Source: Candidatus Saccharimonadota bacterium (GTDB lineage Bacteria > Patescibacteriota > Saccharimonadia > Saccharimonadales > UBA4665). From it: a stretch of DNA of 32,000 nucleotides. The position numbers and the translations under genes were made by a program. The notes under the pieces were generated by a model. It did not search any database. It had not been told where the DNA came from and saw only the letters and a list, made by a program, of their open reading frames with translations. The stretch spans positions 270,001 through 302,000 of the forward strand of contig OY970350.1 of assembly GCA_963718045.1 (NCBI GenBank). The letters are read 5' to 3'. Position 1 is the stretch's first letter. Each line of letters begins with the position of its first letter. Shown in pieces: positions 8,770-21,106 of this stretch.

Positions 8770-9339
8770 ATGACAGATCTAGATGACGCTTTTAATAAAA
8801 TAGAACGTAAGAATTTCCTCCCGAGTTACGAGGTTAGCAACGCCCACCTCGACATTCCGATACCGATCGGGTTTGGGCAGACGAATAGTCAGCCTAGTAC
8901 TGTATATATGATGCTCGAATGGCTTGAACCTGTTTCAGGAGACAAAGTACTTGATGTAGGGTCTGGCTCTGGGTGGACAACTGCGCTGCTGGCTTGTCTG
9001 GTAGGCAGTAAAGGAAGTGTGTTTGGAGTAGAACGGATTAAGGAGCTTGTAGAATTTGGTAGAGAAAACTGCAAAAGGTTAGATATTAGGAATGTAAAAT
9101 TTTATTTGGCTGGGGATGAGTTTGGCTTAAAAAAATATGCACTATATGACCGAATATTAGTCAGTGCGTCATATGACAAAATACCAAAATCACTTATATA
9201 TCAGTTAAAAATTGGCGGGAAGATGGTTATACCTGTCAATAATGACATACTTGAAATTACAAAACTTTCTGATAACAACTTAGATATAATTACCCATCCA
9301 GGATTTGCTTTTGTCCCTTTAGTTAAAGGAAAGGGCTAA
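8770..9339 (+). CDS. pcm: Protein-L-isoaspartate O-methyltransferase
   Basis: R-x-x-F-L-P, GFGQTNSQPSTV (QTxSQP), SAM-binding VLDVGSGSGWTTALLA, YDRILVSA, and FVPLV at the C-terminus. ATG 8770 is preferred to TTG 8749. Confidence 0.85.
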   Translation: MTDLDDAFNKIERKNFLPSYEVSNAHLDIPIPIGFGQTNSQPSTVYMMLEWLEPVSGDKVLDVGSGSGWTTALLACLVGSKGSVFGVERIKELVEFGRENCKRLDIRNVKFYLAGDEFGLKKYALYDRILVSASYDKIPKSLIYQLKIGGKMVIPVNNDILEITKLSDNNLDIITHPGFAFVPLVKGKG

Positions 9340-9722
9340 TTTTTATTAACTTTACTAAACTCTTTACGCAGTTCAACCTTAGCTTGTTCTAGTATGGATT
9401 TCTGCTTAGCTGGCAATTTATTGCCGGATCGGTTGATATAAAAGTTTAACATTGACATAGCTGACTTATATGAACCGCTCTTTTTACGATTACTGTTTTC
9501 AGCAGAACGCTTCAGTGATTGTGCAATTATTTTTGGGCTGGTCAATGTGAATACTCCTTTTTCAAGGTCTAAGGCGTTGCTCGTTAAGCCAACTTGTTTT
9601 GACCAGTATTGTTGTTTCACTTTCTTATAATAAGTGGAAAATATATAAAAAATCCAATAAGCTGAATGCTTACTGGATTCTTCTTCAATATTCCTGCGCC
9701 AGTAGGCTTTTGAGAGCGGCAT
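9336..9722 (-). CDS. DUF3175-family protein
   Basis: WSKQVGLTSNALDLEKGVF...IAQSLKRSAENS...KSAMSMLNFYINRSGNKL...AKVELRKEF matches the DUF3175 consensus as I recall it. The start is uncertain. ATG 9722 overlaps the upstream gene by 38 nt. GTG 9620 (TATTAT box 6 nt upstream) would give an N-terminus closer to typical family members. Confidence 0.65.
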   Translation of the reverse strand: MPLSKAYWRRNIEEESSKHSAYWIFYIFSTYYKKVKQQYWSKQVGLTSNALDLEKGVFTLTSPKIIAQSLKRSAENSNRKKSGSYKSAMSMLNFYINRSGNKLPAKQKSILEQAKVELRKEFSKVNKN

Positions 9723-11442
9723 TTACCGGCTTAACACTGATGCCGCTGCTTTTTAAATAGACCATTTGCTGTTTAAACTGAGTTGGAGTAATCGCATATG
9801 CTGATTCTTCGTCGCTTGAAGGAGTGGTCGTGATGTCGTGGTAAACCAAAACTAGCCAGTCGTGATCGGTTTTTGCTTGGGTAATCCAAGACTGTACATC
9901 AGCTAGTGTGGTGGTCGGCAGGACCAAACGAGCATGAATCTGGTCAACATTAAGATTGGCCTTGGTGTTCATTTCGCCGTCTGTCGTGCGGTCGGATTGT
10001 TCGTACTGCATGATAGTCGGAGTCTCACTGGAGACGTATGAGCCGAAAGGGCTGGCGAAATCAGTTACCGGGTACTTCGAGCCTAAAATCTGTAGCAAGG
10101 TGACGTTATTGCCGGTTAGCTCACTGATGATCGTTGGTATGTCCAGTTCCACCATGTCCGATAAGTGGTAAAGATGAGAAGCGATTTCATTGCCGTCGGC
10201 AGCGGTTTTTACTAACTGGGCATCGGTCATATAGCCCGAAGTACCCAGTGTTCCGGCGGTGACGTAAAATGTGCAGTCGAAGCCTTCTTTGCTCAAAACA
10301 CTAACGGCATTGGTGTATTGATCGGCAAAATTATCATCAAGCGTCACGCTAACCATACCGCTACTGAAGGTAGCCGGTGTTTGGTTGGCCAGAGGCGTCA
10401 GAGCGACATCGGACAACGATACCATGCCTTCGCCACTGGTAGCCAGCACAATTTGCAAAGAAGCTGTCTTGGACGGAGTGACAAAATTATCCTGGTATTC
10501 CGACCAGGTCGGTGTTATTGTCCCGAATATTCCGGCGGTTGCCGGTGCCGACATTAGTGATACTGCCTGTGTTGTTCCATTGCTTAATGTTTCAATGACG
10601 TAGGCGTAAACGTAGGTCGTGCTTTCCTGCCAAAAACTCAGCTCGTAGCGTTGACTACTGAGCGGACTGGCGACAGTGGTTGTCCAGCCGGCTTCGTCAT
10701 TGATGGAACTGGTAGTCATACTGACTGCCGCTGCTCCGTTATAGCCATTGACGCTGTAGCCGTAAACTACCGGATCAGAGCCATAAGTTTGGGTTGTCCA
10801 GCTGGCCGGAGAGTCGGGATTGTCCGCGCAGGTTTGTTCAAAATTGCCGTTAGCTAGTCCGTTAATTAGAGTCGGCGTACAGGGGATGTCTTGAACCAGG
10901 CTGGTATCATCAATGATCAGCTGGCCGTTGGCGTTAAGGACATGAAAGACGGTTACCGTGCTGACACCGGTAGGGACAATGAAAGATTCGGCTATACTCT
11001 GCCAAGACGAACTTGCCGACTGGTTGCCTAGCCACTGGTAGGTCAGGTTGCCGTCGCTGCTGGCATATTGTGCCCAGATATTGGTGGTGACGCTTGACTC
11101 GCTCCAGTCGCTGTAAGTGTAGAAGTCACCGCTAGTTACTACCACAGGCGTAAACATCCATTTTGCATCACCACTGACATAGTCGGCGACGGTTGTTTCG
11201 GCTGAATAATTGCCGCTGTGGCCGGTATTTAAATATGTAAACGTGGCGATATTTGATCCCCAGGAATTGGTTGTCCAATCGTCCGGCTGGCCGGGGGTGG
11301 CGATCGAAGTTTCAAATCCCGGATTGGCGATCAGGTTAACTGGTGTCGAATCCAGAGCCTGAGCTTGCGCCAGCGGCATGATAGCTTCCATCGCCAAGAC
11401 CAAGCCAAGCGTTATTTTAATGCCCCTTGATAATACCTTCAT
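9685..11442 (-). CDS. Secreted polysaccharide deacetylase (CE4/NodB) with two N-terminal CBM4/9-like modules
   Basis: Sec signal peptide ending AQAQA. Two roughly 150-aa repeats each open with N-x-x-F-E (NPGFETS, NGNFEQT) and end with ...IDDTSL / ...LSDVAL. The C-terminal domain has VSVTLDDNFADQY (TFDD-type) and ASHLYHLSDM (HxxxH-type). SD AAAGGAG is upstream. Confidence 0.75.
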   Translation of the reverse strand: MKVLSRGIKITLGLVLAMEAIMPLAQAQALDSTPVNLIANPGFETSIATPGQPDDWTTNSWGSNIATFTYLNTGHSGNYSAETTVADYVSGDAKWMFTPVVVTSGDFYTYSDWSESSVTTNIWAQYASSDGNLTYQWLGNQSASSSWQSIAESFIVPTGVSTVTVFHVLNANGQLIIDDTSLVQDIPCTPTLINGLANGNFEQTCADNPDSPASWTTQTYGSDPVVYGYSVNGYNGAAAVSMTTSSINDEAGWTTTVASPLSSQRYELSFWQESTTYVYAYVIETLSNGTTQAVSLMSAPATAGIFGTITPTWSEYQDNFVTPSKTASLQIVLATSGEGMVSLSDVALTPLANQTPATFSSGMVSVTLDDNFADQYTNAVSVLSKEGFDCTFYVTAGTLGTSGYMTDAQLVKTAADGNEIASHLYHLSDMVELDIPTIISELTGNNVTLLQILGSKYPVTDFASPFGSYVSSETPTIMQYEQSDRTTDGEMNTKANLNVDQIHARLVLPTTTLADVQSWITQAKTDHDWLVLVYHDITTTPSSDEESAYAITPTQFKQQMVYLKSSGISVKPVNAALKSLLAQEY

Positions 11443-11455
11443 ATAACTAACTCCT

Positions 11456-12742
11456 TTACACTTTTAAATTATTAGCAGCGCCACTGCGTTCCGGAGAAAT
11501 CCAAGTAGTTCGCTGACCGGATACGCTCCTGGCCAGGTTCGGTAGCTTAATAGCTGTCAAAATCAAGGCGGCATATTCCGCCAAAGACATCAGGTACATG
11601 ACGATATACATTGCTGGCGCAAATACTGATAGACGCAGCCGGTCTTTAATGCTCAGATGGGCACTCGACCAGACGCAAACCAGGATGTAGCTGGTAATAA
11701 CTGCCAGAGCGGCCATTAAAGTGATTGAGCTATGGTAGTAAATACTGACAAAGATAATGAAAGTTACCACAATCGGCTCCAGTACAAACAACAGTTCCAT
11801 CAGCAGCGCATAGGGTAATATTACCCAAGTTAGAGCTTTGGAGTAGCGGTTGCCGCGGGCAAAGAACAGCTGGTAGTTTTTATAAAATGTCTGCAGACGG
11901 CCATATTTCCAGCGGTAGCGCTGGGTAATCAGGGACCGCAGCGAAGGCACCGCTTCGGTATAGGTAATGCAATCGGCCGCATAAAGGATTCGGTCCTGCT
12001 TGTTGCCGCGGGCAATAATCTTCATCGTCAGATCGATATCCTCGGTCATGGTATTAGTGTCGTAATAGCCGACTTGCTCCAATTTTTGGCGCCTAAACAT
12101 GGAACCGATGCCGCCGATAATGTATTCGATACCGTATATGGTCTGGGCTTTTTTCATATGGTAAGCAATCAAGTATTCAAAGCGCTGGGCTAAACCAAGG
12201 ATTGAACCATTTTCAATAATGTTGACGTTGCTGGCTAGGGCTACTACTCGCCTGTCGCGGAAATAAGCCACTGCTTTTTTGACAGCGTCGGGGGCAATCA
12301 GCGAATCAGCGTCCAGACACATAACTAAAGTGCCGCTGGCTTTATTGCGAATGGTGTTATTGAGTACACTGGCCTTGCCGCCGTTACGTTGCCCATAGAG
12401 TACCATATTGATTTCACCTTTATGGGCCTTGATAAATTTTTGGATAATTTTTGACGTTCCGTCGGTCGAGCCGTCGTTGACTAAAATGATTTGCAGTTTG
12501 CTTTTGGGGTATTTCAGCTTTGCCAGGCATTCCAAAGTTTTTTCGATAACTGGCGCTTCGTTATGGGCCGGGACGATCAGGCTGACGCTTGGCCGATATG
12601 GTCGTTTGGCCCTACGCTTGCCTGACTTGGTACTCTTAATGCCGTAAATGTCGCTGCCCACCAGATAGATTGTCATGCGTATAATGTTGAAAATACTCAT
12701 GCCGATGATGTAGGTTATAAGAATTTTCATGAAACCGTTCAT
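11456..12742 (-). CDS. Processive family-2 glycosyltransferase (PgaC/IcaA/cellulose-chitin-synthase type polysaccharide synthase)
   Basis: N-terminal TM plus 3-4 C-terminal TMs. Motifs LIVPAHNE, LVNDGSTDGT, CLDADS, TEDIDLT and QRYRWKYG (Q-R-x-R-W). Confidence 0.8.
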   Translation of the reverse strand: MNGFMKILITYIIGMSIFNIIRMTIYLVGSDIYGIKSTKSGKRRAKRPYRPSVSLIVPAHNEAPVIEKTLECLAKLKYPKSKLQIILVNDGSTDGTSKIIQKFIKAHKGEINMVLYGQRNGGKASVLNNTIRNKASGTLVMCLDADSLIAPDAVKKAVAYFRDRRVVALASNVNIIENGSILGLAQRFEYLIAYHMKKAQTIYGIEYIIGGIGSMFRRQKLEQVGYYDTNTMTEDIDLTMKIIARGNKQDRILYAADCITYTEAVPSLRSLITQRYRWKYGRLQTFYKNYQLFFARGNRYSKALTWVILPYALLMELLFVLEPIVVTFIIFVSIYYHSSITLMAALAVITSYILVCVWSSAHLSIKDRLRLSVFAPAMYIVMYLMSLAEYAALILTAIKLPNLARSVSGQRTTWISPERSGAANNLKV

Positions 12743-13419
12743 ACGTTTGCCCCGCTGGCCAGGATCTGGTTAGTACTTATATTCGTTACGCTGATCAAAT
12801 GGAAGTACATGACGTGACGAAACTGATACCACAGACCAGTGCAGGTCATCAGTTCAACCGGGTTGCCGATGTTGGCTTGGCTCAGGATGGCACTATCGGT
12901 CGGCGGCACAATAGCTGAATCGGCGTAGTAATAGCTGAAACGGTAGCCATTGTTGGTGTTAATGGTCATCAGATCACCGTAAACCAGTTGCGAGGTCTTG
13001 ATTAAAATGCCGGGGATATCATGGCCGTAGAGAAAAGTAACTTGTTTTTGGTCGGTGGAGATAATGGGGTTGGGATTAATGTTGTTATCGGTAAAAACGT
13101 CTTCACTGTTAAGCGTCCAGGTCTGCGAAGCTGGCCGGTAAAAACCCGGCATAATCGGTAAATTAATGCTCAGACGGTTAATCGACAAGGAGATCGGCGT
13201 GCCGCTGATTAGTGGCACTGCCGCCGCTGCTGCGGCAGGGCTCTCGGGAGTGGTTTTTAAGTACTGCATCAGCTGGGTTTTAACTACATAGACAGCGTGA
13301 TCGTGATTGATAATTGGCACTACTATCAGGCTGAGTATGCCCAAGTATACCAGTACCACTAGCGTGTAAAGCCTTAGCTGTGGTTTACGAAGAAACGCCA
13401 AATGTGTGCCTGTATTCAT
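12739..13419 (-). CDS. Sortase-family transpeptidase
   Basis: N-terminal TM anchor. TFLYGHD (His), L-x-x-GD-x-x-x-I, VELMTCTG (TLxTC-type Cys), and Arg in YQFRHVMY about 9 residues after the Cys. The order and spacing are as in sortases. The stop overlaps the GT2 start (ATGA). Confidence 0.65.
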   Translation of the reverse strand: MNTGTHLAFLRKPQLRLYTLVVLVYLGILSLIVVPIINHDHAVYVVKTQLMQYLKTTPESPAAAAAAVPLISGTPISLSINRLSINLPIMPGFYRPASQTWTLNSEDVFTDNNINPNPIISTDQKQVTFLYGHDIPGILIKTSQLVYGDLMTINTNNGYRFSYYYADSAIVPPTDSAILSQANIGNPVELMTCTGLWYQFRHVMYFHLISVTNISTNQILASGANV

Positions 13420-13458
13420 GGTACCATTAAAGCCTGGCCAGGTTTAACTGCAATAAGG

Positions 13459-13650
13459 TTAGTTGCTATGATAGTGTGTAACAATATTCTTGATAACCTT
13501 GCTCAGGATGACAATCATCGCACAAACAATGGCTACAATAATTACATACGATACCAGCATGCTTCCGTGGGTGAAGGGTAATACAACTGCGCCGGTGGCT
13601 ACTGTCCCGGCACTGGCTACGTTACCACCACCTACTACAGATCCGCTCAT
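13459..13650 (-). CDS. 63-aa protein consisting essentially of an LPxTG-like sorting signal (LPFTHG + TM helix + basic tail)
   Basis: SD GAGGAG lies 6 nt upstream of the ATG, with a promoter 40-70 nt upstream. The sequence is MSGSVVGGGNVASAGTVATGAVV-LPFTHG-SMLVSYVIIVAIVCAMIVILS-KVIKNIVTHYHSN. The N-terminal 23 residues carry no charge and there is no signal peptide. Confidence 0.55.
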   Translation of the reverse strand: MSGSVVGGGNVASAGTVATGAVVLPFTHGSMLVSYVIIVAIVCAMIVILSKVIKNIVTHYHSN

Positions 13651-13690
13651 TCCTACTCCTCATCAACAGTTCTTTAGTTGAATAATATAT

Positions 13691-13719
13691 ATAGTAATGA
13701 ATAGATGCAGAACTGTCAA
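13691..13719 (-). promoter_or_regulatory. Sigma70-type promoter TTGACA-17 nt-TACTAT for the sortase/GT2 operon
   Basis: On the reverse strand, TTGACA is at 13719-13714, the spacer is 17 nt, and TACTAT is at 13696-13691. The leader to ATG 13650 is about 33 nt. Confidence 0.55.
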
Positions 13720-14005
13720 CTATATTGTAATACTGGTTATGGTAAACAATTTTTTGATATTTGTGATACTAGGTTGCGTTGTATGGTCATACTTGTTGTA
13801 CCCCTATAAATTATGTGGTAATAGAATCCAGGAGGCAACCATCCCTTCGTGGCAAGCAACATTTGATGCTTAATATTAGCTCCCCCTAGCTGACATGTTA
13901 CGAACCAAATACTATTTAAATATAACTAATATAGCTACGCAACTGACGTCTATTAAATTAGAATTAAGTAATGGATTGCGTTGGGATTAATTAAGTATCC
14001 TGGTG

Positions 14006-15010
14006 TTAGTCGTGTAACCATTCCCAATTATGCACGTTATGCTGTACCCAGCTTATACAATCTCCCTGATTTTTAAAGCTTGGTTTAGTAAAATCCTTCC
14101 ATCCATCAACCTTGCACTGGAATAATCTATAGGGAGTTTTACAATTTATATTCCATACCACTATGTATTTATTGCTCAGTAAGTTTGTAAAACTCGGTGC
14201 AGTTTTATTATGTACTCTGGTTGTTTCTGCCTGCGCTAACGTATTACCCGTAGAGTAGCCCTCCAGGGCATAAGGAGCACCGTCTAAAGTACATTTCGTG
14301 GCAACAGTCGAACCCATTACTTCATTAGTGGCGTAATTAGCACCTAGAGACATATTGCTGGTAGTCGCCATATACGAGTTAGGATTATTAAAACCAGCGG
14401 GGCCTAAGTTGTACGTACCTGAACCAGTGCTGATGTTAGTAGCGCTCCACGAAGATGCCATAGGAAATGAGATATTGTTAGCGTTAACCGTAGTTGCCTG
14501 TTCGCCATCAATGAATTTGTCGATTGTAACAGTCACAGTGTATGGAGTTGCTGTACCTGTCGGCATTGTAAAAGATTGGCAATTGTTATCTACGCTACCC
14601 GAAACCGAGCCATCAGATTCAATAGTCCCAATGCCATCTAACGTATATCCAGCATTTGAGCCTGTATATACTAATGTAAAGCTTATGCTATCGCCACTTA
14701 CATTACCTGTAATGTTCCAGGTATATGTATTATCGGCGTTATAGTAACCAGTTCCTGAAAAATTTCCTGTATTGTTTTCTGAAATTGTATTCAATGTGTG
14801 TGCATAGTCTGCGCCTCCACAACTAAATGTAATCTGGCTCGGAGCATTAATCTCCCAGTTGGGTAGTGGTAACGCGGTAGCGTTGGCAGTGCTAAAAGTA
14901 GCTAACGATAGGCCTCCGCTTCCCAATAATAGTCCGAACACTGATAATGCAATGAATACTTTCTTTCTTAGTTTCTGTATGCCTGTACGCACATTATAAT
15001 GATACCGCAT
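14006..15010 (-). CDS. Hypothetical secreted protein, Cys-containing, N/T/S/G-rich
   Basis: SD AAGGAGG lies 5 nt before ATG 15010, so the ORF-track start 15031 is rejected. Signal/anchor KLRKKVFIALSVFGLLLGSGGLSLATFSTANA. The C-terminal block is C-x11-C-KVDGWKDF...FKNQGDC. No enzymatic motif seen. Confidence 0.6.
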   Translation of the reverse strand: MRYHYNVRTGIQKLRKKVFIALSVFGLLLGSGGLSLATFSTANATALPLPNWEINAPSQITFSCGGADYAHTLNTISENNTGNFSGTGYYNADNTYTWNITGNVSGDSISFTLVYTGSNAGYTLDGIGTIESDGSVSGSVDNNCQSFTMPTGTATPYTVTVTIDKFIDGEQATTVNANNISFPMASSWSATNISTGSGTYNLGPAGFNNPNSYMATTSNMSLGANYATNEVMGSTVATKCTLDGAPYALEGYSTGNTLAQAETTRVHNKTAPSFTNLLSNKYIVVWNINCKTPYRLFQCKVDGWKDFTKPSFKNQGDCISWVQHNVHNWEWLHD

Positions 15011-15111
15011 ATAACCCTCCTTAATTATCATTTACATTGTATCACTATATTTTTGCTAAAAATACTTATGTATTAAATAGAATTTTATTAATTAACTTTT
15101 ATAATTATGTC

Positions 15112-15186
15112 TGGCTCCGGAGGCCGGATTCGAACCGGCAACCATCGCCTTAACAGGGCGTTGCTCTACCGTTGAGCTACTCCGGA
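15112..15186 (-). tRNA. tRNA-Asn: tRNA-Asn (anticodon GTT), CCA encoded
   Basis: The reverse strand reads TCCGGAG-TA-GCTC-AACGGTA-GAGC-A-ACGCC-CTGTTAA-GGCGA-TGGTT-GCCGG-TTCGAAT-CCGGC-CTCCGGA-G-CCA. This is a 75-nt cloverleaf with a 7-bp acceptor stem, a GTTCGAAT T-loop and anticodon GTT. Confidence 0.9.
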
Positions 15187-15202
15187 AGATTAGGATAGGT
15201 TG

Positions 15203-15232
15203 ATTATAGCGTAGCCTAAACCAGAGTACCAA
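15203..15232 (-). promoter_or_regulatory. Candidate promoter TTGGTA-18 nt-TATAAT for tRNA-Asn
   Basis: On the reverse strand, the -10 TATAAT is at 15208-15203 and the -35 TTGGTA at 15232-15227. The mature tRNA 5' end is 17 nt downstream of the -10. Confidence 0.35.
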
Positions 15233-15261
15233 TATTTTAGCTCTTTATATCGCTATATCGC

Positions 15262-16248
15262 TTAGCTGGCTAGGATTGTCTCAAGATCAATAGTGGCCGT
15301 ACAGATTCTGGTGTCTCCTGCTCCGTAGTAAAGTCTAATAACATCATCCTCTTCAAGGACTGCACCACAGCAAAAGATAGCTTTAGGCAAATCATTTTCC
15401 TCAGCTAGCTCATTAATATCGTTATCTGACATACTGCGAAGTGCCTGATACCCTCCCGGTATAAGATCGGCATAACCAATGGTTTCGTATTTTTCCTCTG
15501 GTTCAAGTATTGGTTTATTGCAGCGCCACAAAACTTCCATTGGGTCACTCGGACTAAGCAGTGCAGCTCCCAGCCGGTAGGTTCGCTTATCGCTAATTTC
15601 ATCAATGCCATGATAGAAAACCAGCCAGCCCTTAGCAGTACGGATTGGTGGCGGTCCCATTTCTACATAGGCCGCATCGAATAAACCGGGCCTAGCACTA
15701 ATTACTGGAATGGATATAGGATGCCATTTCATAAAGTCGTCTGACATGGCAGGCCATATATGATTATCGCCAAACAATAGGTAGTGGCGGCCATTAATTA
15801 TTTCCGGCAATATGGCCGCTGCCTTTGACCAATCGACTGGCAGGTTTTCCCTTTGGGGGTGAGCAAGTCTAGGAAATAATAGGTTGTGTTTTTGCCAGTG
15901 ATAGAGATCGGGGCTGGAAGCCATGGCTGCTCGGGCCGTTTTACCGTCGTAAGCTGTATATGTTGTGAAGTACTTGCCTTCAATGTACACCATTCTGGGG
16001 TCTTCACAGCCCTTATCTTCCCAAGGATTTTCGGGAAAGATAACTGGTTCAGGTTCGATTTTAAAGTCAACGCCATTATCGCTAGTTGCCAGTAGGATTC
16101 GGGAAATCCAATCTTCGCCAACTCCTCTAAAGAGCATGTGATATCTGCCTTCTCTTTTAACTACTGTTGGATTATAAACTTTTTTAGGGTACCACTTGCT
16201 GCTGGGATCGCCGGATATTATGGGATTATTGGCATAGCGCTTAAGCAT
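15262..16248 (-). CDS. GH130-family glycoside phosphorylase/hydrolase (beta-mannoside type)
   Basis: MLKRYANNPII...VYNPTVV...RYHMLFRGVG...CEDPRMVYIEGKYFTTYTAYDG fits the GH130 five-bladed propeller pattern. Confidence 0.75.
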   Translation of the reverse strand: MLKRYANNPIISGDPSSKWYPKKVYNPTVVKREGRYHMLFRGVGEDWISRILLATSDNGVDFKIEPEPVIFPENPWEDKGCEDPRMVYIEGKYFTTYTAYDGKTARAAMASSPDLYHWQKHNLLFPRLAHPQRENLPVDWSKAAAILPEIINGRHYLLFGDNHIWPAMSDDFMKWHPISIPVISARPGLFDAAYVEMGPPPIRTAKGWLVFYHGIDEISDKRTYRLGAALLSPSDPMEVLWRCNKPILEPEEKYETIGYADLIPGGYQALRSMSDNDINELAEENDLPKAIFCCGAVLEEDDVIRLYYGAGDTRICTATIDLETILAS

Positions 16249-16282
16249 ACATATAGTGTATACGATATAGGAATATTTAATG

Positions 16283-17245
16283 CTAGATTGTTGTTCTTAG
16301 GTCTAACATAAGCAGCGACAGCAGCAGACAAATATTCGATTCAGCGCCACTGTTATAGTGGACGCCACCTCTATCGATTCCGTCATAGCATTTTAAGGTC
16401 AAAGGATCATACATTCTTTCTTTCTTAATGTTATGGCCGTCAAACCACTCCTGCCATTTTTTTGCTTGGACGAAATACTTTTCCTGCCCGAAGCATTGGT
16501 AGGCGGCCAGCCAAGCCCAAATCATATAGGCGGCATCAATCGGCTGCTGGGAATATTCGGGAACAACCGTGGCCGACTTAGCCAGCCAGCCTTCGTTACC
16601 GATTGGTCCTAAGATGTGTCCGCCAAGTTCGCACTTGGACTCTAAAAACTGGCATACTTTCAAGCCGAATTGGCTGATTGTCTTATCACCGCTAACTAGC
16701 CCGTAGCGCAGCAGTGCGTATGGGATTATCCCATTGCCATAAGTCATAACTGGTTCAGGCCACAGCCATTTATGATCTGTGTCGGCAAAAAAAGACAGTA
16801 ATTTGTCGGCCAGTTTTTTTGACAGATCATTATCGAAGTAGACTGTTCCTAACAGGGCGTAAGCATAGCCTCGCATATGTTCAAACTTCATAATAGTTGG
16901 CCAGCAAGTTTCTATAATCTCTTTAATTTCTTTGCGGTGGAAGTCCAATGAATAAGCAAAACCCAGAGACCAAATTACCTCGCCAATGGCGTCTTCGGAA
17001 GCTGGATATTGTATTAATTTATGTTTATCTGTGGCAAAACCGTAAAAGCTTTGATTGTAACGGGATTTTTTAATGTATTTAAAGAGCACTTCGGCCTGCT
17101 TAGTTTTTTGAAGAGCTAAGCAAAGCAGCAGACCTCTGGCGGCATCGTCAAGGGCGTAACCTTCACCCTTATAGATGGTTTGCCCGTCAGTATGCTGCCA
17201 GATGCCATAATCATCTATTAAGCTGTCAAAGAACGGTGTGTTCAT
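16283..17245 (-). CDS. Hypothetical protein, possibly an (alpha/alpha)6-barrel glycan-active enzyme
   Basis: 320 aa, soluble, W/Y/A-rich helical repeats (ALDDAARGLL, YALLRYGL, AYMIWAWLAAY). The ATGA overlap with the upstream GT4 stop implies co-expression. The fold call is a guess. Confidence 0.3.
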   Translation of the reverse strand: MNTPFFDSLIDDYGIWQHTDGQTIYKGEGYALDDAARGLLLCLALQKTKQAEVLFKYIKKSRYNQSFYGFATDKHKLIQYPASEDAIGEVIWSLGFAYSLDFHRKEIKEIIETCWPTIMKFEHMRGYAYALLGTVYFDNDLSKKLADKLLSFFADTDHKWLWPEPVMTYGNGIIPYALLRYGLVSGDKTISQFGLKVCQFLESKCELGGHILGPIGNEGWLAKSATVVPEYSQQPIDAAYMIWAWLAAYQCFGQEKYFVQAKKWQEWFDGHNIKKERMYDPLTLKCYDGIDRGGVHYNSGAESNICLLLSLLMLDLRTTI

Positions 17246-18441
17246 TGGGCCTTTATAATATAATCCTCAATTATTTTTAAGTAAGCTTTGCCGACAACTG
17301 GCCAGGACATCTTCTTAACGTAAGGCAAGAGGCTTTTTCTGGTCCTTTTTTGCAAGTCAGTATCATCGATTAGGCGGTTGACGGCATAGACAATACCGTC
17401 TGGATCCTCAAAGGGTACTAAGAGGCCGCGGTTTCTAGCCAGCAGTTCCTGGGCGTATCTGTAGGGGGTGGAAATGATTAGCAAGCCTGTGCCAACAGCA
17501 TAAGCCAAGGTTCCCGAAGCTGCTTGTTCAGGGTCGCGGTGCGGCGTTAAGTAAATATCAGCTGCGGACATATACTCCATTAACTCTTCAGTTTCCAGAT
17601 ATTTATTAATAAATGTCAGATGACTTTCTACACCAAGCTCTTTAGCTAGGGCCATTAAGCTTTTACGGTAGGTTTCATCATTAGTTGCCAGAACCTGAGG
17701 ATGAGTTTGGCCAATCACAAGAAGCTGAACATTAGGGTGTTTTTGAAGTATTTTTGGCATTCCCTTAATAACAAGATCAATGCCTTTATTAGGGCTCATC
17801 AGGCCGGTAATAACGAGGTAAAAGTTATTGGCATCAAGGTTTAGATCCTTAAGTATTTGGGAGCGGCTTTTGCCAACTTTATTAGGTACGCCGTGATGAA
17901 TTACGACTATCTTGTTTTCTTCTATTTGGTAATCGGCACAAAGAATTCTTTTAGAGTCCTGACTCATGGTAACAACCATAGTGGAGTGGTTAGCAATTTT
18001 ACGGGTAACTTCCTTGCGGTCTGGATCGGGATAAGGCAGAACAGTATGCATGGTCGTTATTGTCAGTGCGTTTAGGGAATTAAGTAGAGCAAAAATATTA
18101 TCTCCGGTCGGGTCCACATGGTGAACGCCGTCATGGATAAACTTGGTCCACTTACCTCCGAACAAGCCAAACTCGTGCTGAAGTAATACCGCGTCAAGGT
18201 TCAGCTGGTTAAGTACCGTTGCAGCCTGGCGGTACGAGCTTTTCGAATTATCCTTCAGCACGGCGACAACGTTATGGCCGTAAACATATGATTCGTTAGC
18301 TTTTTCGGCGGCCACAACAACCACTTTAGTGTTTGGCAGACTGAACTTAATACCGTCAATCAGGTCACGGCTAAAAGTAGCAATCCCGCACTTCTTGGGA
18401 AGAGAGGAACAGATAAAACCTAAACGCAGATCACTACGCAT
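17242..18441 (-). CDS. Family-4 (GT-B, group 1) glycosyltransferase
   Basis: 399 aa. The C-terminal half has GIDLVIKGMPKILQKHPNVQLLVIG and the E-x7 region PEQAASGTLAYAVGTG...ISTP typical of Glycos_transf_1. Confidence 0.75.
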   Translation of the reverse strand: MRSDLRLGFICSSLPKKCGIATFSRDLIDGIKFSLPNTKVVVVAAEKANESYVYGHNVVAVLKDNSKSSYRQAATVLNQLNLDAVLLQHEFGLFGGKWTKFIHDGVHHVDPTGDNIFALLNSLNALTITTMHTVLPYPDPDRKEVTRKIANHSTMVVTMSQDSKRILCADYQIEENKIVVIHHGVPNKVGKSRSQILKDLNLDANNFYLVITGLMSPNKGIDLVIKGMPKILQKHPNVQLLVIGQTHPQVLATNDETYRKSLMALAKELGVESHLTFINKYLETEELMEYMSAADIYLTPHRDPEQAASGTLAYAVGTGLLIISTPYRYAQELLARNRGLLVPFEDPDGIVYAVNRLIDDTDLQKRTRKSLLPYVKKMSWPVVGKAYLKIIEDYIIKAQ

Positions 18442-18538
18442 TTTTAATTGATATTCTCTTTCGTGAGCGATAGTTTAAAATCCCTCTAGGGCAAGGGAAT
18501 AACAGAATAAACTACCTTAACGTGTCCTAGATGACGTA

Positions 18539-18547
18539 ATTATACCA
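18539..18547 (-). promoter_or_regulatory. Candidate extended -10 promoter (TGgTATAAT) for the GT4 operon
   Basis: The reverse strand reads TGGTATAAT at 18547-18539, about 97 nt upstream of ATG 18441. Confidence 0.35.
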
Positions 18548-18626
18548 TTAACTGAGGTTGATAAGGATAAATCTAATAATAGGCTTTGTGCCGGGCAGCT
18601 GCATTCTTAGTCTATAAACCCTACAT

Positions 18627-19088
18627 CTATCGGCGTCTGGATTCAATCACAATGCGCCTGTTGGCGTCACGTTCTTTTAATTTCTGACGTTTATCGTAAC
18701 GTTTCCTGCCCTTACCGACAGCTATTTTAAGTTTTATGTATCTTGAGCCGGTTAGTATCTCCAGCGGGACTATTGTTCTGCCCTGTTTTTTAGCTTCTAT
18801 AAGAGCATCGATTTCTTTTCTTTTAGCCAGTAGCCGGCGGGGTCTTGTTCGGTCTGATTCTTCTATCGGTATGCCGCCGCTTCCAGCTATGGTGGCATTA
18901 ATTAAAAACAGTTGGTCATCTTTAACGGTAACGTAGGCTCCTCTTAGGTGGCCGTGGCCCATTCTTAAGTTTTTTACTTCAGCTCCCGATAGTTCCAGGC
19001 CCACAGTTAAACTATCGCCTAGTTCGTAGTCGAATCTGGCGCGGCGGTTAGATATTCGCTTAGTTTGAGCTTTAGTATTTTTAGCCAT
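18627..19088 (-). CDS. smpB: SsrA-binding protein SmpB
   Basis: 153 aa. Motifs NRRARFDY, GAEVKNLR, L-x-x-A-x-I, RTRPRRLLAKRKEI, and a basic C-terminal tail. Confidence 0.9.
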   Translation of the reverse strand: MAKNTKAQTKRISNRRARFDYELGDSLTVGLELSGAEVKNLRMGHGHLRGAYVTVKDDQLFLINATIAGSGGIPIEESDRTRPRRLLAKRKEIDALIEAKKQGRTIVPLEILTGSRYIKLKIAVGKGRKRYDKRQKLKERDANRRIVIESRRR

Positions 19089-19097
19089 ACAATCATT

Positions 19098-20237
19098 TTA
19101 ACCCACTGATCCCTTAAACTCTTGTTTAGCAACATTCCAGAGTGATGGATCGTGCAGAATTTCCAGGCGGTAATACCAGTATTCTGCACCCCAGAGAAGA
19201 ACATCTCTCATGCCTGTTGCTTTTCCGTATTTAAAGCGGTTAAGAAGCCGGGTGGCATCGATTGACTTATTTTGTTCAGCTAGAGATGTTTTGGTTATTG
19301 CCTGGCCATTAGGCGGCCAGGCTTCAGCCTGCAGTTCGCCAATGATCATATTACGGTGAAAGAATATCTCCTGTACTCCGGCAATGAAGGCGTAGTACCA
19401 GGCCGGGTATGGGTATTCGAAATATCTATGGGTTACGCCGGCATCCCATACTCTTTTATATACCGAGATACTAAATTCATTCGGTGTTGGCTGGCCAACC
19501 GGAAAACCTATGGCATTATTGCTCCGGCCTAGAATTATTGGGTGGTTAGGGTCTAGTTTCTTGACCAGGTTATATTCGCTTATTAAACGGCTTCGGCTGA
19601 AATTAGTGCATTCACCAAAACCCTTCAAAAAGTATTCGTTTTCCAGCTGGTAGCTTTCCAGGCTCGGGGAGTTCTTATACCTATTTATAACAGCGGTCAT
19701 GAAGGCTTCAAGCTGGGGCTGCCAGACGCTCTGCGGTTCATTTGCTGCCCAGGTGGGCATAAAGCACTCCGGCCAGCGGGGCTGCCTTAAACCAACTACC
19801 AGAATTACTTTAGCGTGGGCCTTCTCGGCCATCTTAAACTGCCAATCAAGCGTACTGAAATCATAATGTCCTTCAGTTGGCTCGAGGTAGCTCCAGTAAC
19901 TGTCAAGTCTGAATTGTTTAACGCCAATATTAATTAGGGCCTGCATGGTTTGTTCGGGGTTAAGGCCTAAGCTCTCGGCATAATACGGGCTGAAGCTAAC
20001 ACCCATCTTAAGTGGTGTCGATGATTCGGTATAGATATACCACCTGGCAATGCCGTACATCGTGCCAAGAATTAATAAAACTACAATAACAAATATCATC
20101 TTAACCTTGTGCCATGGCCCCTTACGCCAATACTTAACGGGGTAATGGTAAATATATTTAGCCGCTCTTATTAAGCTCTTATTAAGCTTACCTGTATACA
20201 GTTTTATCTTTAGTGACATATAATTTGAGATAACCAC
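19098..20237 (-). CDS. Membrane-anchored clan GH-A (TIM-barrel) glycoside hydrolase
   Basis: WSYLEPTEGHYDF..LDW, the acid/base-type motif QLENEY, and a later GELQAEAW (candidate nucleophile Glu). One N-terminal TM. The start is uncertain. ATG 20237 abuts the divergent GT2 start, so ATG 20219 or ATG 20099 (MIFVIVVLL...) is more likely. Confidence 0.55.
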   Translation of the reverse strand: MVISNYMSLKIKLYTGKLNKSLIRAAKYIYHYPVKYWRKGPWHKVKMIFVIVVLLILGTMYGIARWYIYTESSTPLKMGVSFSPYYAESLGLNPEQTMQALINIGVKQFRLDSYWSYLEPTEGHYDFSTLDWQFKMAEKAHAKVILVVGLRQPRWPECFMPTWAANEPQSVWQPQLEAFMTAVINRYKNSPSLESYQLENEYFLKGFGECTNFSRSRLISEYNLVKKLDPNHPIILGRSNNAIGFPVGQPTPNEFSISVYKRVWDAGVTHRYFEYPYPAWYYAFIAGVQEIFFHRNMIIGELQAEAWPPNGQAITKTSLAEQNKSIDATRLLNRFKYGKATGMRDVLLWGAEYWYYRLEILHDPSLWNVAKQEFKGSVG

Positions 20238-20239
20238 CT

Positions 20240-21106
20240 ATGCGAAATTTAAAACCGAAGATATCTATAGTTATACCAGCATATAACGAAGAGAGCCATA
20301 TTGGCGCTTGTCTTGAGGCTATCTCTAAACTGGAATTAAAACCCTTTGAAGTTATTGTTGTCGATAACATGTCAACGGATAAGACGGCTGAAATAGCCAG
20401 GTCTTTTGCTTTTGCTCGAGTAATTAGAGAAACCAAGCAAGGGCTAGTTTATGCCAGGGACTGCGGCTTTAACGCGGCTAGAGGAGATATTATTGGCCGT
20501 ATAGATGGTGATACACTGCTGCCAAGTGACTGGACTTTAAAAATTGAGGAGATATTTAAAGATTATAACGTTGATGCTGTTTCTGGCGGCATTCATTTTT
20601 ACGATATCGGCCTGCCGCATATTATTGATAGCGTTGATGCCTATTGGCGGGCTTGGGCGGCTAGAAAAATGGCAGCCAGGAAACGGACATTTCTTCTTGG
20701 ATCTAATATGGCTATTAGGCGTTCCGCTTGGCTCGCTGTTAGAAACAGGGTTTGTCATAAAAAAGGCATACATGAAGATCTTGATTTGTCCTTGCACTTA
20801 TCCTGGATAGATCTAAGGGTAATCTTTGACCCTCACTTAATGGCAAATGTTTCAATCAGAAGAATTGACTGCAACTTCTTCAGTGTAGTCCACTACTGTT
20901 TTGAAAGCCCGAAAACCTACATCAAGCATAAAGCTAGGGAGCATTGGTATGCCTATCCGATTATCGCCATTGTACTAGTTGACTATGGCTTCTTATGGAT
21001 GCTCTTTAGGGCTTTTGACGAACAAACTCAAAAATTAAATTTAAAAACACTTCTAACCAGCCATAGCGCCAGCCGGGTCAACCCAGCAGATTTTATCCAG
21101 TCTTAG
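20240..21106 (+). CDS. Family-2 glycosyltransferase (small, C-terminal TM; polyprenyl-phosphate sugar transferase-like)
   Basis: ISIVIPAYNEE, VIVVDNMSTDKT and a D-G-D block (RIDGDT). 288 aa with a C-terminal hydrophobic helix. Confidence 0.75.
   Translation: MRNLKPKISIVIPAYNEESHIGACLEAISKLELKPFEVIVVDNMSTDKTAEIARSFAFARVIRETKQGLVYARDCGFNAARGDIIGRIDGDTLLPSDWTLKIEEIFKDYNVDAVSGGIHFYDIGLPHIIDSVDAYWRAWAARKMAARKRTFLLGSNMAIRRSAWLAVRNRVCHKKGIHEDLDLSLHLSWIDLRVIFDPHLMANVSIRRIDCNFFSVVHYCFESPKTYIKHKAREHWYAYPIIAIVLVDYGFLWMLFRAFDEQTQKLNLKTLLTSHSASRVNPADFIQS

Follow-up and report, generated by a model that had tools for sequence, protein, structure and literature searches.

A conserved saccharibacterial cassette of a mini-protein with sorting-signal layout, a sortase and a predicted PgaC/IcaA-like synthase

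We analyzed a 32,000-nucleotide stretch of DNA from a Candidatus Saccharimonadota bacterium (contig OY970350.1 of assembly GCA_963718045.1, positions 270,001 to 302,000; the whole stretch is referred to as the window). The window contains a cassette of four tightly packed minus-strand genes at 13650..9685, which encode a 63-residue mini-protein, a sortase, a family 2 glycosyltransferase (GT2) and a protein in which two carbohydrate-binding module (CBM)-like modules are fused to a carbohydrate esterase family 4 (CE4) domain (Table 1). Upon direct reading, the open reading frame (ORF) of the mini-protein was separated from the sortase gene by 39 nucleotides (nt), the sortase and GT2 genes shared an ATGA stop/start overlap, and the CE4 gene followed the GT2 gene after 13 nt, with its Shine-Dalgarno (SD) sequence AAAGGAG spanning the TAA stop codon of the GT2 gene. 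An earlier note on this DNA had listed the ORFs, motifs, gaps, overlap and SD sequences, and direct reading confirmed all of them in place. Profile matches were also obtained for the sortase (PF04203), the GT2 (PF00535, PF13641 and PF13632), the CE4 domain (PF01522) and a neighboring DUF3175 gene (PF11373).

Table 1. Features of the cassette and its surroundings. Positions are those of the window unless a related locus is named.
Feature	Position	Strand	Remark
Sigma-70-like promoter TTGACA-17-TACTAT	13719..13691	minus	read directly; 10/12 consensus positions
Shine-Dalgarno GAGGAG	13661..13656	minus	read directly; 5 nt ahead of mini-ORF ATG
Mini-protein ORF, 63 aa	13650..13459	minus	ORF list
LPFTHG motif	13581..13564	minus	within mini-protein
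Mini-protein membrane helix	about 13560..13504	minus	predicted
Sortase ORF, 226 aa	13419..12739	minus	ORF list
Catalytic His133	13023..13021	minus	FLYGH
Catalytic Cys193	12843..12841	minus	LMTCTG
Catalytic Arg201	12819..12817	minus	YQFRH
ATGA overlap, sortase stop/GT2 start	12742..12739	minus	read directly
GT2 ORF, 428 aa	12742..11456	minus	ORF list
CBM-CBM-CE4 ORF, 585 aa	11442..9685	minus	ORF list
CBM-like modules 1 and 2	about 11346..10879; 10872..10405	minus	beta-sandwich, internal repeat
CE4/NodB deacetylase domain	about 10365..9814	minus	PF01522
Intrinsic terminator: 16-bp stem, 5-nt loop, U-run	9637..9683	minus	directly after CE4 stop
DUF3175 ORF, 128 aa as annotated	9722..9336	minus	ORF list; neighbor, not member
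GH18 / LytR-CpsA-Psr side genes	L021 12431-12603; JGI locus 11247-12383; L004 1-1032; L021 403-1719		

Profile match, modelled fold and catalytic columns all identify the 226-residue protein as a sortase, as the earlier note had proposed. It carries an N-terminal membrane anchor and scored 28.0 bits against PF04203, for which the cut-off is 26.6. His133, Cys193 and Arg201 occupy the catalytic columns and were invariant in an alignment of 14 sequences that reached down to 26% identity. A profile of ten sortase homologues matched solved sortases (4d70, 8e-6), with the catalytic Cys falling on that of their TLxTC motif. The AlphaFold2 (AF2) model showed a predicted local distance difference test (pLDDT) value of 74, with 83-93 in the core blocks, and a Foldseek search with this model gave sortases of classes A, C, D and E for all of the best 50 PDB matches at a probability of 1.00. 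Single-sequence PDB searches with the sortase, the CBM-like half and the CE4 half returned nothing useful, whereas family profiles worked. Among the curated sortase classes A-F, the only NCBIfam matches at E <= 0.1 were TIGR01076 (16 bits; cut-off 39) and class C (12.6 bits; cut-off 160), and neither Pfam nor NCBIfam contained a model specific to this sortase clade. At one related locus (L004), a second, longer sortase was found 4 kb from the cassette, and the cassette sortase is therefore probably specialized. The enzyme is predicted to act as a transpeptidase on the LPFTHG motif of the mini-protein.

Its own sequence and those of its homologues show that the 63-residue ORF is a genuine gene that evolves under purifying selection and has the layout of a sorting signal, which agrees with how the earlier note had read it. 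The ratio of non-synonymous to synonymous change (pN/pS) was 0.22-0.46, with synonymous change near saturation, and a GGAG-type SD sequence stood ahead of the mini-ORF at almost every related locus (none was evident in L019); these two observations together indicate that the gene is real. The window protein consists of 23 uncharged, Gly/Ala/Val/Thr/Ser-rich residues, the LPFTHG motif, one membrane helix and a basic tail, SKVIKNIVTHYHSN, with a charge of +2 and no acidic residue. Its best 19-residue hydrophobic window starts 4 residues past the six-residue motif and has a Kyte-Doolittle mean of 3.1. This arrangement of motif, hydrophobic segment and positive tail was the same in 40/40 homologues. 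The motif statistics were drawn from these 40 distinct sequences, in which the motif read L (40/40), P (40/40), x, T (39/40), a variable position 5, G (36/40) and N (31/40), with position 5 being Gly in 21, Ser in 11, His in 6, Gln in 1 and Ala in 1. The canonical LPXTG was thus present in 21 of the 40 proteins, and the version in the window is LPFTH-G. The N-terminal stretch of the homologues comprised 17-31 residues, was 84% Gly/Val/Ala/Thr/Ser and nearly uncharged, and included a conserved Val-Val ahead of LP; their tails each contained two to four Lys/Arg residues (+2 to +4) and zero acidic residues.

Signal peptides and membrane insertion were assessed by heuristic calculations rather than with a trained predictor. 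No Sec signal peptide was apparent on the window mini-protein, which has no charge before the motif and a best 15-residue Kyte-Doolittle mean of 1.14. Across the family, the C-terminal segment was predicted to insert into the membrane (median Hessa insertion energy of -1.4 kcal/mol), and the N-terminal segment was predicted not to insert (family median of about +4.8, range +2.8 to +8.3). A hairpin in which the N-terminal segment forms a second membrane span, with LPXTG in the outer turn, is unlikely at these insertion energies. By analogy with the Pf3 coat protein, the topology of the mini-protein is likely N-out, C-in. The protein contains no domain, and the window branch has no Lys before the motif. 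There was no Pfam or NCBIfam model specific to the mini-protein; one homologue (P0045) passed the LPXTG_anchor model TIGR01167 (16.5 versus a cut-off of 15.9), and the other canonical-LPXTG homologues scanned gave sub-threshold matches to LPXTG models that started exactly at the motif. No other sorting-signal protein was found among the ORFs of the window.

The GT2 is polytopic and contains the complete set of processive-synthase motifs, namely PAHNE, NDGSTD, DAD, TED and QRYRW. It scored 184 bits against TIGR03937 (PgaC_IcaA), with residues 4-419 aligned to model positions 1-406 of 407. The next-best NCBIfam match was the XrtG-associated glycosyltransferase TIGR03111 (116 bits); the XrtP-associated glycosyltransferase model gave 53 bits, and BcsA was among the PDB matches. 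We regard the GT2 as a putative PgaC/IcaA-like processive synthase, with an N-acetylglucosamine (GlcNAc)-type polymer as its predicted product. A GH18 chitinase-family gene adjoins a double cassette, in which a paralogous trio described below follows the cassette, at two loci (L021 and the JGI locus), and LytR-CpsA-Psr genes were observed 4-6 kb from the cassette at three loci. These neighbors are hints on the polymer, possibly chitin-like in view of the GH18 gene beside the cassette in L021, and on its wall attachment.

In the 585-residue protein, a Sec signal is combined with two modules of ~155 residues that are homologous to each other (E 3e-11) and with the CE4 domain, which scored 43.9 bits against PF01522 (cut-off 23.1) and gave an HfsH-like match of 57 bits. 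The earlier note had called the modules CBM4/9-like. They are a true repeat without a Pfam match of their own, and the label depends on homologous modules in related loci, of which 5 of 17 matched PF02018 (CBM_4_9). A profile of the 17 modules matched the CBM70 structure 4d0q (E 3.7e-4). Motif 1 of the CE4 domain, TLDDNF, and the HLYH segment are both present. For motif 2, the family pattern with the metal-binding histidines is H(S/T)xxH. In the window branch, this motif reads H-x-x-H (SHLYH in the window, L001 and L002; SHQYH in L004), and elsewhere it reads HLYQH (L006), HLYEH (L008) or, in the other branch, HTxxH. The second metal-binding His of motif 2 (window about 10110-10140) is thus shifted by one residue, and this shift is conserved in four orthologues; it reflects either an altered metal site or a local alignment slip.

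The position of the CE4/CBM gene differed between branches. In the window branch, a CBM-CBM-CE4 protein is encoded downstream of the GT2, and in the 'MY...KRAYKA' branch, a CE4-CBM-CBM protein is encoded upstream, usually divergently (L009, L012, L015, L017 and L019, of which L019 has CE4-CBM-dockerin). Two CE4 architectures and orientations beside the same trio argue for a functional link over inherited synteny. The CE4/CBM protein was adjacent in most contexts, not all, so that the pairing of synthase and deacetylase on which the earlier note had built holds as a frequent partnership but not as a universal one. No CE4 gene was found downstream of the GT2 in two loci of the window branch. In one of them (L007 2270-6860), unrelated genes and a large serine recombinase occupy its place, which may reflect a rearrangement, and in the other (L003 9445-11223), we observed a 593-residue protein with only a weak GH20b-domain match.

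The trio of mini-protein, sortase and GT2 was found in every related context that we examined, that is, in 13 distinct contexts besides the window (L001-L021 and the JGI 3300050046 locus). The linkage persisted from 66% to 26% sortase identity with differing flanks, and the sortase-GT2 adjacency pointed out in the earlier note was therefore conserved at every related locus examined, thereby withstanding the refutation that the note had set for it. A word-indexed search gave ten close sortase homologues, whose contigs, together with genome and metagenome scans, make up L001-L012. As revealed by tblastn and ORF scanning, the mini-ORF lies directly upstream of the sortase gene and the GT2 gene directly downstream in all of these loci; in L001, the mini-ORF had been overlooked by the gene caller. 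A mini-protein profile retrieved 36 clusters of 56-70 residues, and in L013-L018 the mini-protein gene is followed directly by the sortase gene and then by the GT2 gene wherever the contig extends. The L019 contig ends inside the gene after the mini-protein gene. The 4-nt overlap between the sortase and GT2 genes was present in 10 of the 14 distinct loci with both ends seen, and the gap was otherwise 1-2 nt (L015, L017 and L020) or about 20-30 nt (L006 and L008).

A broader sortase profile retrieved 42 clusters at E values up to 1.5e-25, after which there was a jump to 4e-6. The named sortases within this clade were all from Saccharimonadales or Saccharibacteria, and the three most distant members examined still kept the trio. 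Beyond the clade, the closest sortase came from a Chloroflexota metagenome-assembled genome with 69% guanine plus cytosine (GC). No called mini-ORF or adjoining GT2 gene was seen at its locus, which ends about 0.5 kb downstream, and Ser replaces its catalytic Cys (TLQTSTG; L022 6001-6615). An exhaustive HMMER search returned 32 representatives at E <= 1e-30, 582 at E <= 1e-10 and 1124 at E <= 1e-3. The clade is probably much larger than the loci examined, and the figure of 100% trio linkage rests on a small sample (10-43 clusters versus 582 representatives). One named member sampled from the exhaustive search was Candidatus Saccharimonas. On the available sequences, the cassette appears to be found only in Saccharibacteria (Saccharimonadales). 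A contig labelled Candidatus Dormiibacterota (L006, DASRLG010000046.1) carries the full cassette at 59-76% identity, with a CE4 protein at 53%, and has a GC content of 52.7%, inside the range of 41-53% of the Saccharibacteria loci; the metagenome loci L010 and L011 are near-identical. L006 is probably a mis-binned contig rather than a case of cross-phylum transfer.

Directly after the cassette, a second, paralogous trio was observed in L013 (9083-12491), L021 (7871-11240), L014 and the JGI locus. Its first member is an uncalled membrane ORF of ~50 residues without LPXTG and with a conserved 'SSPFL[IV]LWY...' segment. The second is an anchored protein of 209-220 residues (9372..10034 in L013) that aligns along the whole sortase, in which the Cys is kept, the His is replaced by Arg and the Arg by Asn; its similarity to sortases had little statistical support (Pfam E 0.037; hhalign 4% probability). 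The third is a second PgaC-like GT2, whose gene overlaps that of the second member and is followed by that of a 390-residue protein without a Pfam match. This trio may be a 'pseudo-sortase' module. The joint loss of the sorting motif and of the sortase His and Arg, with the Cys and the coupling to a GT2 retained, fits an enzyme-substrate relationship between the mini-protein and the sortase.

The intrinsic terminator after the CE4 stop codon marks the end of the unit; its hairpin with the U-run (9683..9647) had a stability of -19.9 kcal/mol (z -6.3), and 0/200 shuffles were equally stable. The DUF3175 ORF as annotated includes the terminator in its 5' end, and its PF11373 match covers residues 39-124. 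The 128-residue call looks over-extended, and the true start is probably an in-frame GTG at 9620, just past the terminator, which would give 94 residues that fit the Pfam domain span. At none of the related loci was DUF3175 found to follow the cassette. We rejected it as a member because the terminator intervenes and the gene is not conserved; of the five-gene operon described in the earlier note, the four genes of the cassette were retained and DUF3175 was not. The sigma-70-like promoter named in that note is present as a sequence, but such sites are not above expectation, as the region contained 16 promoter-like sites versus 14.6 +/- 3.4 in shuffled sequence. TTGACA-17-TACTAT is therefore plausible as a promoter from its position only, and because a strict -35/-10 pattern ahead of the mini-ORF had no conserved match in related loci, the call remains weak. 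An Rfam scan of 9000-15400 for riboswitches or leaders revealed tRNA-Asn only.

The window is otherwise ordinary chromosome, with metK, IMP dehydrogenase, smpB, ATP synthase and tRNA-Asn genes. The GC content was 44% in the window, 48% in the cassette and ~50% across 10-12 kb, and the excess in the cassette could reflect Gly/Ala-rich coding or a different history. Upstream of the cassette (15262-21106), we observed genes for a GH130 mannoside phosphorylase-like protein, an unknown 320-residue protein, a GT4, SmpB, a GH42-like protein and a soluble-type GT2. The tRNA-Asn gene at 15112-15186 separates this run of carbohydrate genes from the cassette.

We compared the cassette with known systems. 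The XrtG cassette of Firmicutes, which comprises a Firmicu-CTERM protein, XrtG and two XrtG-associated GT2s (PMC12854382), appears to be the closest known analogue of the saccharibacterial cassette. The two share a gene logic, in which a protein with a C-terminal sorting signal (a putative one in the window) is joined by a dedicated transpeptidase and one or more PgaC-like GT2s (PMC12854382). In contrast, the window enzyme is a single-anchor sortase beta-barrel, whereas XrtG is an unrelated polytopic exosortase, and the signal in the window is of an LPXTG-like type rather than PEP-CTERM or Firmicu-CTERM. Additionally, the putative substrate of the window type has 56-70 residues without a signal peptide, and a CE4-CBM partner is common. 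The earlier note had placed the tie between exosortases and exopolysaccharide loci in Gram-negative bacteria; this is incomplete, since the Firmicutes XrtG cassette has GT2s (PMC12854382) and the window GT2 itself gave 116 bits on TIGR03111. Exosortase and CTERM models matched no cassette protein, and only the GT2 resembled XrtG- or XrtP-associated glycosyltransferases. The cassette thus resembles an exosortase system in its working but is not a member.

Compared with icaADBC and pgaABCD, the window unit has a GT2 aligned along its full length to PgaC_IcaA, a secreted CE4 protein (as IcaB/PgaB) and a small membrane protein (as IcaD/PgaD). It differs in having a sortase, a sorting motif on the small protein and two CBM-like modules on the deacetylase, and homologues of IcaD, PgaD, IcaC and PgaA were not detected. 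Dedicated sortase operons (SrtB-IsdC, class D/E and the marine sortase with a single target) are similar in that a specialized sortase adjoins one substrate, motif position 5 is non-canonical and the sortase has a membrane anchor and the His/Cys/Arg triad. To our knowledge, the substrates of such operons are folded and bear signal peptides; none is a domainless tail of 25 residues, and none is encoded with a processive polysaccharide synthase. In the literature searched, we likewise found no dedicated sortase operon with such a synthase. With respect to sortase-assembled pili (class C), the Lys pilin motif and Ig-like domains are absent from the mini-protein. In Actinomyces oris, GspA, LCP and SrtA reportedly act on a glycosylated LPXTG protein that is anchored by the sortase, and in Streptomyces, with chaplins and SrtE on one side and CslA-GlxA on the other, a sortase-anchored amyloid is reportedly retained by a GT2-made glycan. 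Both systems are precedents for joint action of a glycan on the surface with a protein sorted by a sortase, as may be the case here. Their genes are not known to form one cassette, the glycan does not come from a synthase with translational coupling, and the sorted proteins are of full size. The searched literature contained no description of the mini-protein/sortase/GT2 arrangement, in line with the impression of novelty given in the earlier note. The cassette is a conserved, apparently undescribed combination of known parts.

Taken together, we favor, with moderate confidence, a dedicated sortase/substrate pair that works with a poly-GlcNAc-type synthase in a conserved envelope-building cassette. 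The sequences show the order of the genes, their families, the catalytic residues and the motif with its conservation. Topology, cleavage, acceptor, identity of the polymer and a physical complex belong to the mechanism that we propose, which is plausible and entirely inferred. The 63-residue protein would insert like the Pf3 coat protein, with the uncharged N-terminus out and the basic tail in, which would place LPFTHG at the outer face and make a signal peptide unnecessary. The membrane-anchored sortase would cut after Thr27 and hold residues 1-27 (26 residues if the initiator Met is removed) as a thioester, which a primary amine of the envelope would then resolve, thereby receiving the Gly/Ala/Val/Thr/Ser-rich peptide. 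This transfer would take place beside the PgaC/IcaA-like synthase, which is translationally coupled to the sortase and would probably form a complex with it while extruding a GlcNAc-type polymer. The secreted CBM-CE4 protein would bind and partly deacetylate this polymer.

For the acceptor, a peptidoglycan precursor is favored because it corresponds to canonical sortase chemistry; we put it at a little under an even chance that the amine belongs to such a precursor and that a wall-bound peptide retains or organizes the polymer. Alternatively, because CE4 is so often a partner and the synthase is so tightly coupled, glucosamine amines exposed by CE4 on the polymer may be the acceptors, a possible but rather unlikely solution. 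Along these lines, the sortase would ligate the 27-residue peptide to glucosamine of the nascent polymer, yielding a peptide-decorated polysaccharide with a beta-sheet-forming or cross-linking graft, an outcome that we consider unlikely. Its standing is weakened by the lack of CE4 at several loci.

Several observations weigh against a dedicated pair that works with a synthase. The window mini-protein matched neither of the LPXTG-anchor models, TIGR01167, which the earlier note had put forward, and PF00746, and its motif has His instead of Gly at position 5. We know of no sortase substrate without a signal peptide. The sortase passes PF04203 only marginally, and no curated sortase class fitted. 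As the GT2 misses the equivalog cut-off of TIGR03937 (184 versus 422 bits), the match does not fix the identity of the polymer. In L013/L014, L020, L021 and the JGI locus, no CE4 gene lies within 6-7 kb.

Three other explanations have to be weighed against the dedicated pair. The mini-protein could be a small synthase subunit of the IcaD/PgaD kind and the sortase-fold protein a structural or regulatory component, with cleavage merely switching the synthase. PgaC/IcaA-type synthases are known to need a small membrane partner, for which the cassette contains no other candidate; conservation in the helix and tail of the mini-protein is close to that in its N-terminus, and the paralogous trio in L013/L021 suggests that three proteins can cooperate without catalysis. 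However, L-P-x-T-x-G and His/Cys/Arg are invariant or nearly so in the main clade, which is hard to explain without catalysis, and the N-terminal peptide, including the Val-Val before LP, is conserved too; moreover, the case from the paralogue suffers from its weak similarity to sortases (Pfam E 0.037; hhalign 4%). We consider this explanation improbable. Even less credit is given to the idea that the sortase frees the 27-residue peptide by hydrolysis of the thioester or joins copies of it, either head to tail or via a Lys, into a fiber, a mini-pilus, with the polysaccharide as a separate matrix component. Class C sortases do polymerize pilins, many members of the 'MY' branch have Lys in the first 4-10 residues as well as oligo-Gly stretches, and the composition may be akin to that of readily beta-sheet-forming sequences. 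In contrast, the window branch and several others have zero Lys before the motif, the pilin domain, pilin motif and E-box are all absent, and the translational coupling to the GT2 would be left unexplained. Pilus-like polymerization through Lys was rejected as a general mechanism, since many members have no Lys, and release or polymerization in any form is highly improbable.

Finally, the enzyme could be a housekeeping sortase for ordinary LPXTG proteins, in which case the operon position would be meaningless and the mini-ORF would encode some small membrane protein unrelated to it. Patescibacteria commonly have sortases (PMC6744442), and the count of sortases in this genome covers a 32-kb window. 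Nevertheless, linkage and translational coupling hold from 66% to 26% sortase identity with different flanks, the recognition motif is present in 40/40 mini-protein variants, L004 has its second, longer sortase 4 kb off, and the clade is sharply bounded (E up to 1.5e-25, then 4e-6). Hence, a housekeeping role is scarcely credible.

Sortases are textbook anchors of folded surface proteins, and the synthase-dependent ica/pga systems are textbook biofilm machines; the two have apparently not been found before as one unit. The sorted 'protein' in this unit is essentially a sorting signal plus a tail of 25 residues. The dedicated sortase/substrate pair suggests a new use of sortases, in which a short peptide would be built covalently into the wall or glycan coat. 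It also suggests that sorting enzymes became linked to exopolysaccharides a second time and independently, a link that was earlier known only for exosortases. If the proposed mechanism is true, the mini-protein would be the first sortase substrate exported without a signal peptide. If the acceptor is a sugar, the cassette would perform a natural peptide-to-sugar ligation, its sortase would be the first to use anything other than a peptide amine as acceptor, and the enzyme would be useful for peptide-glycan ligation. Saccharibacteria are tiny, mostly uncultured bacteria that spend their lives on the surface of host bacteria, and very little is known of the chemistry of their own surface; with only four genes to express, the cassette is a small and testable way into it.

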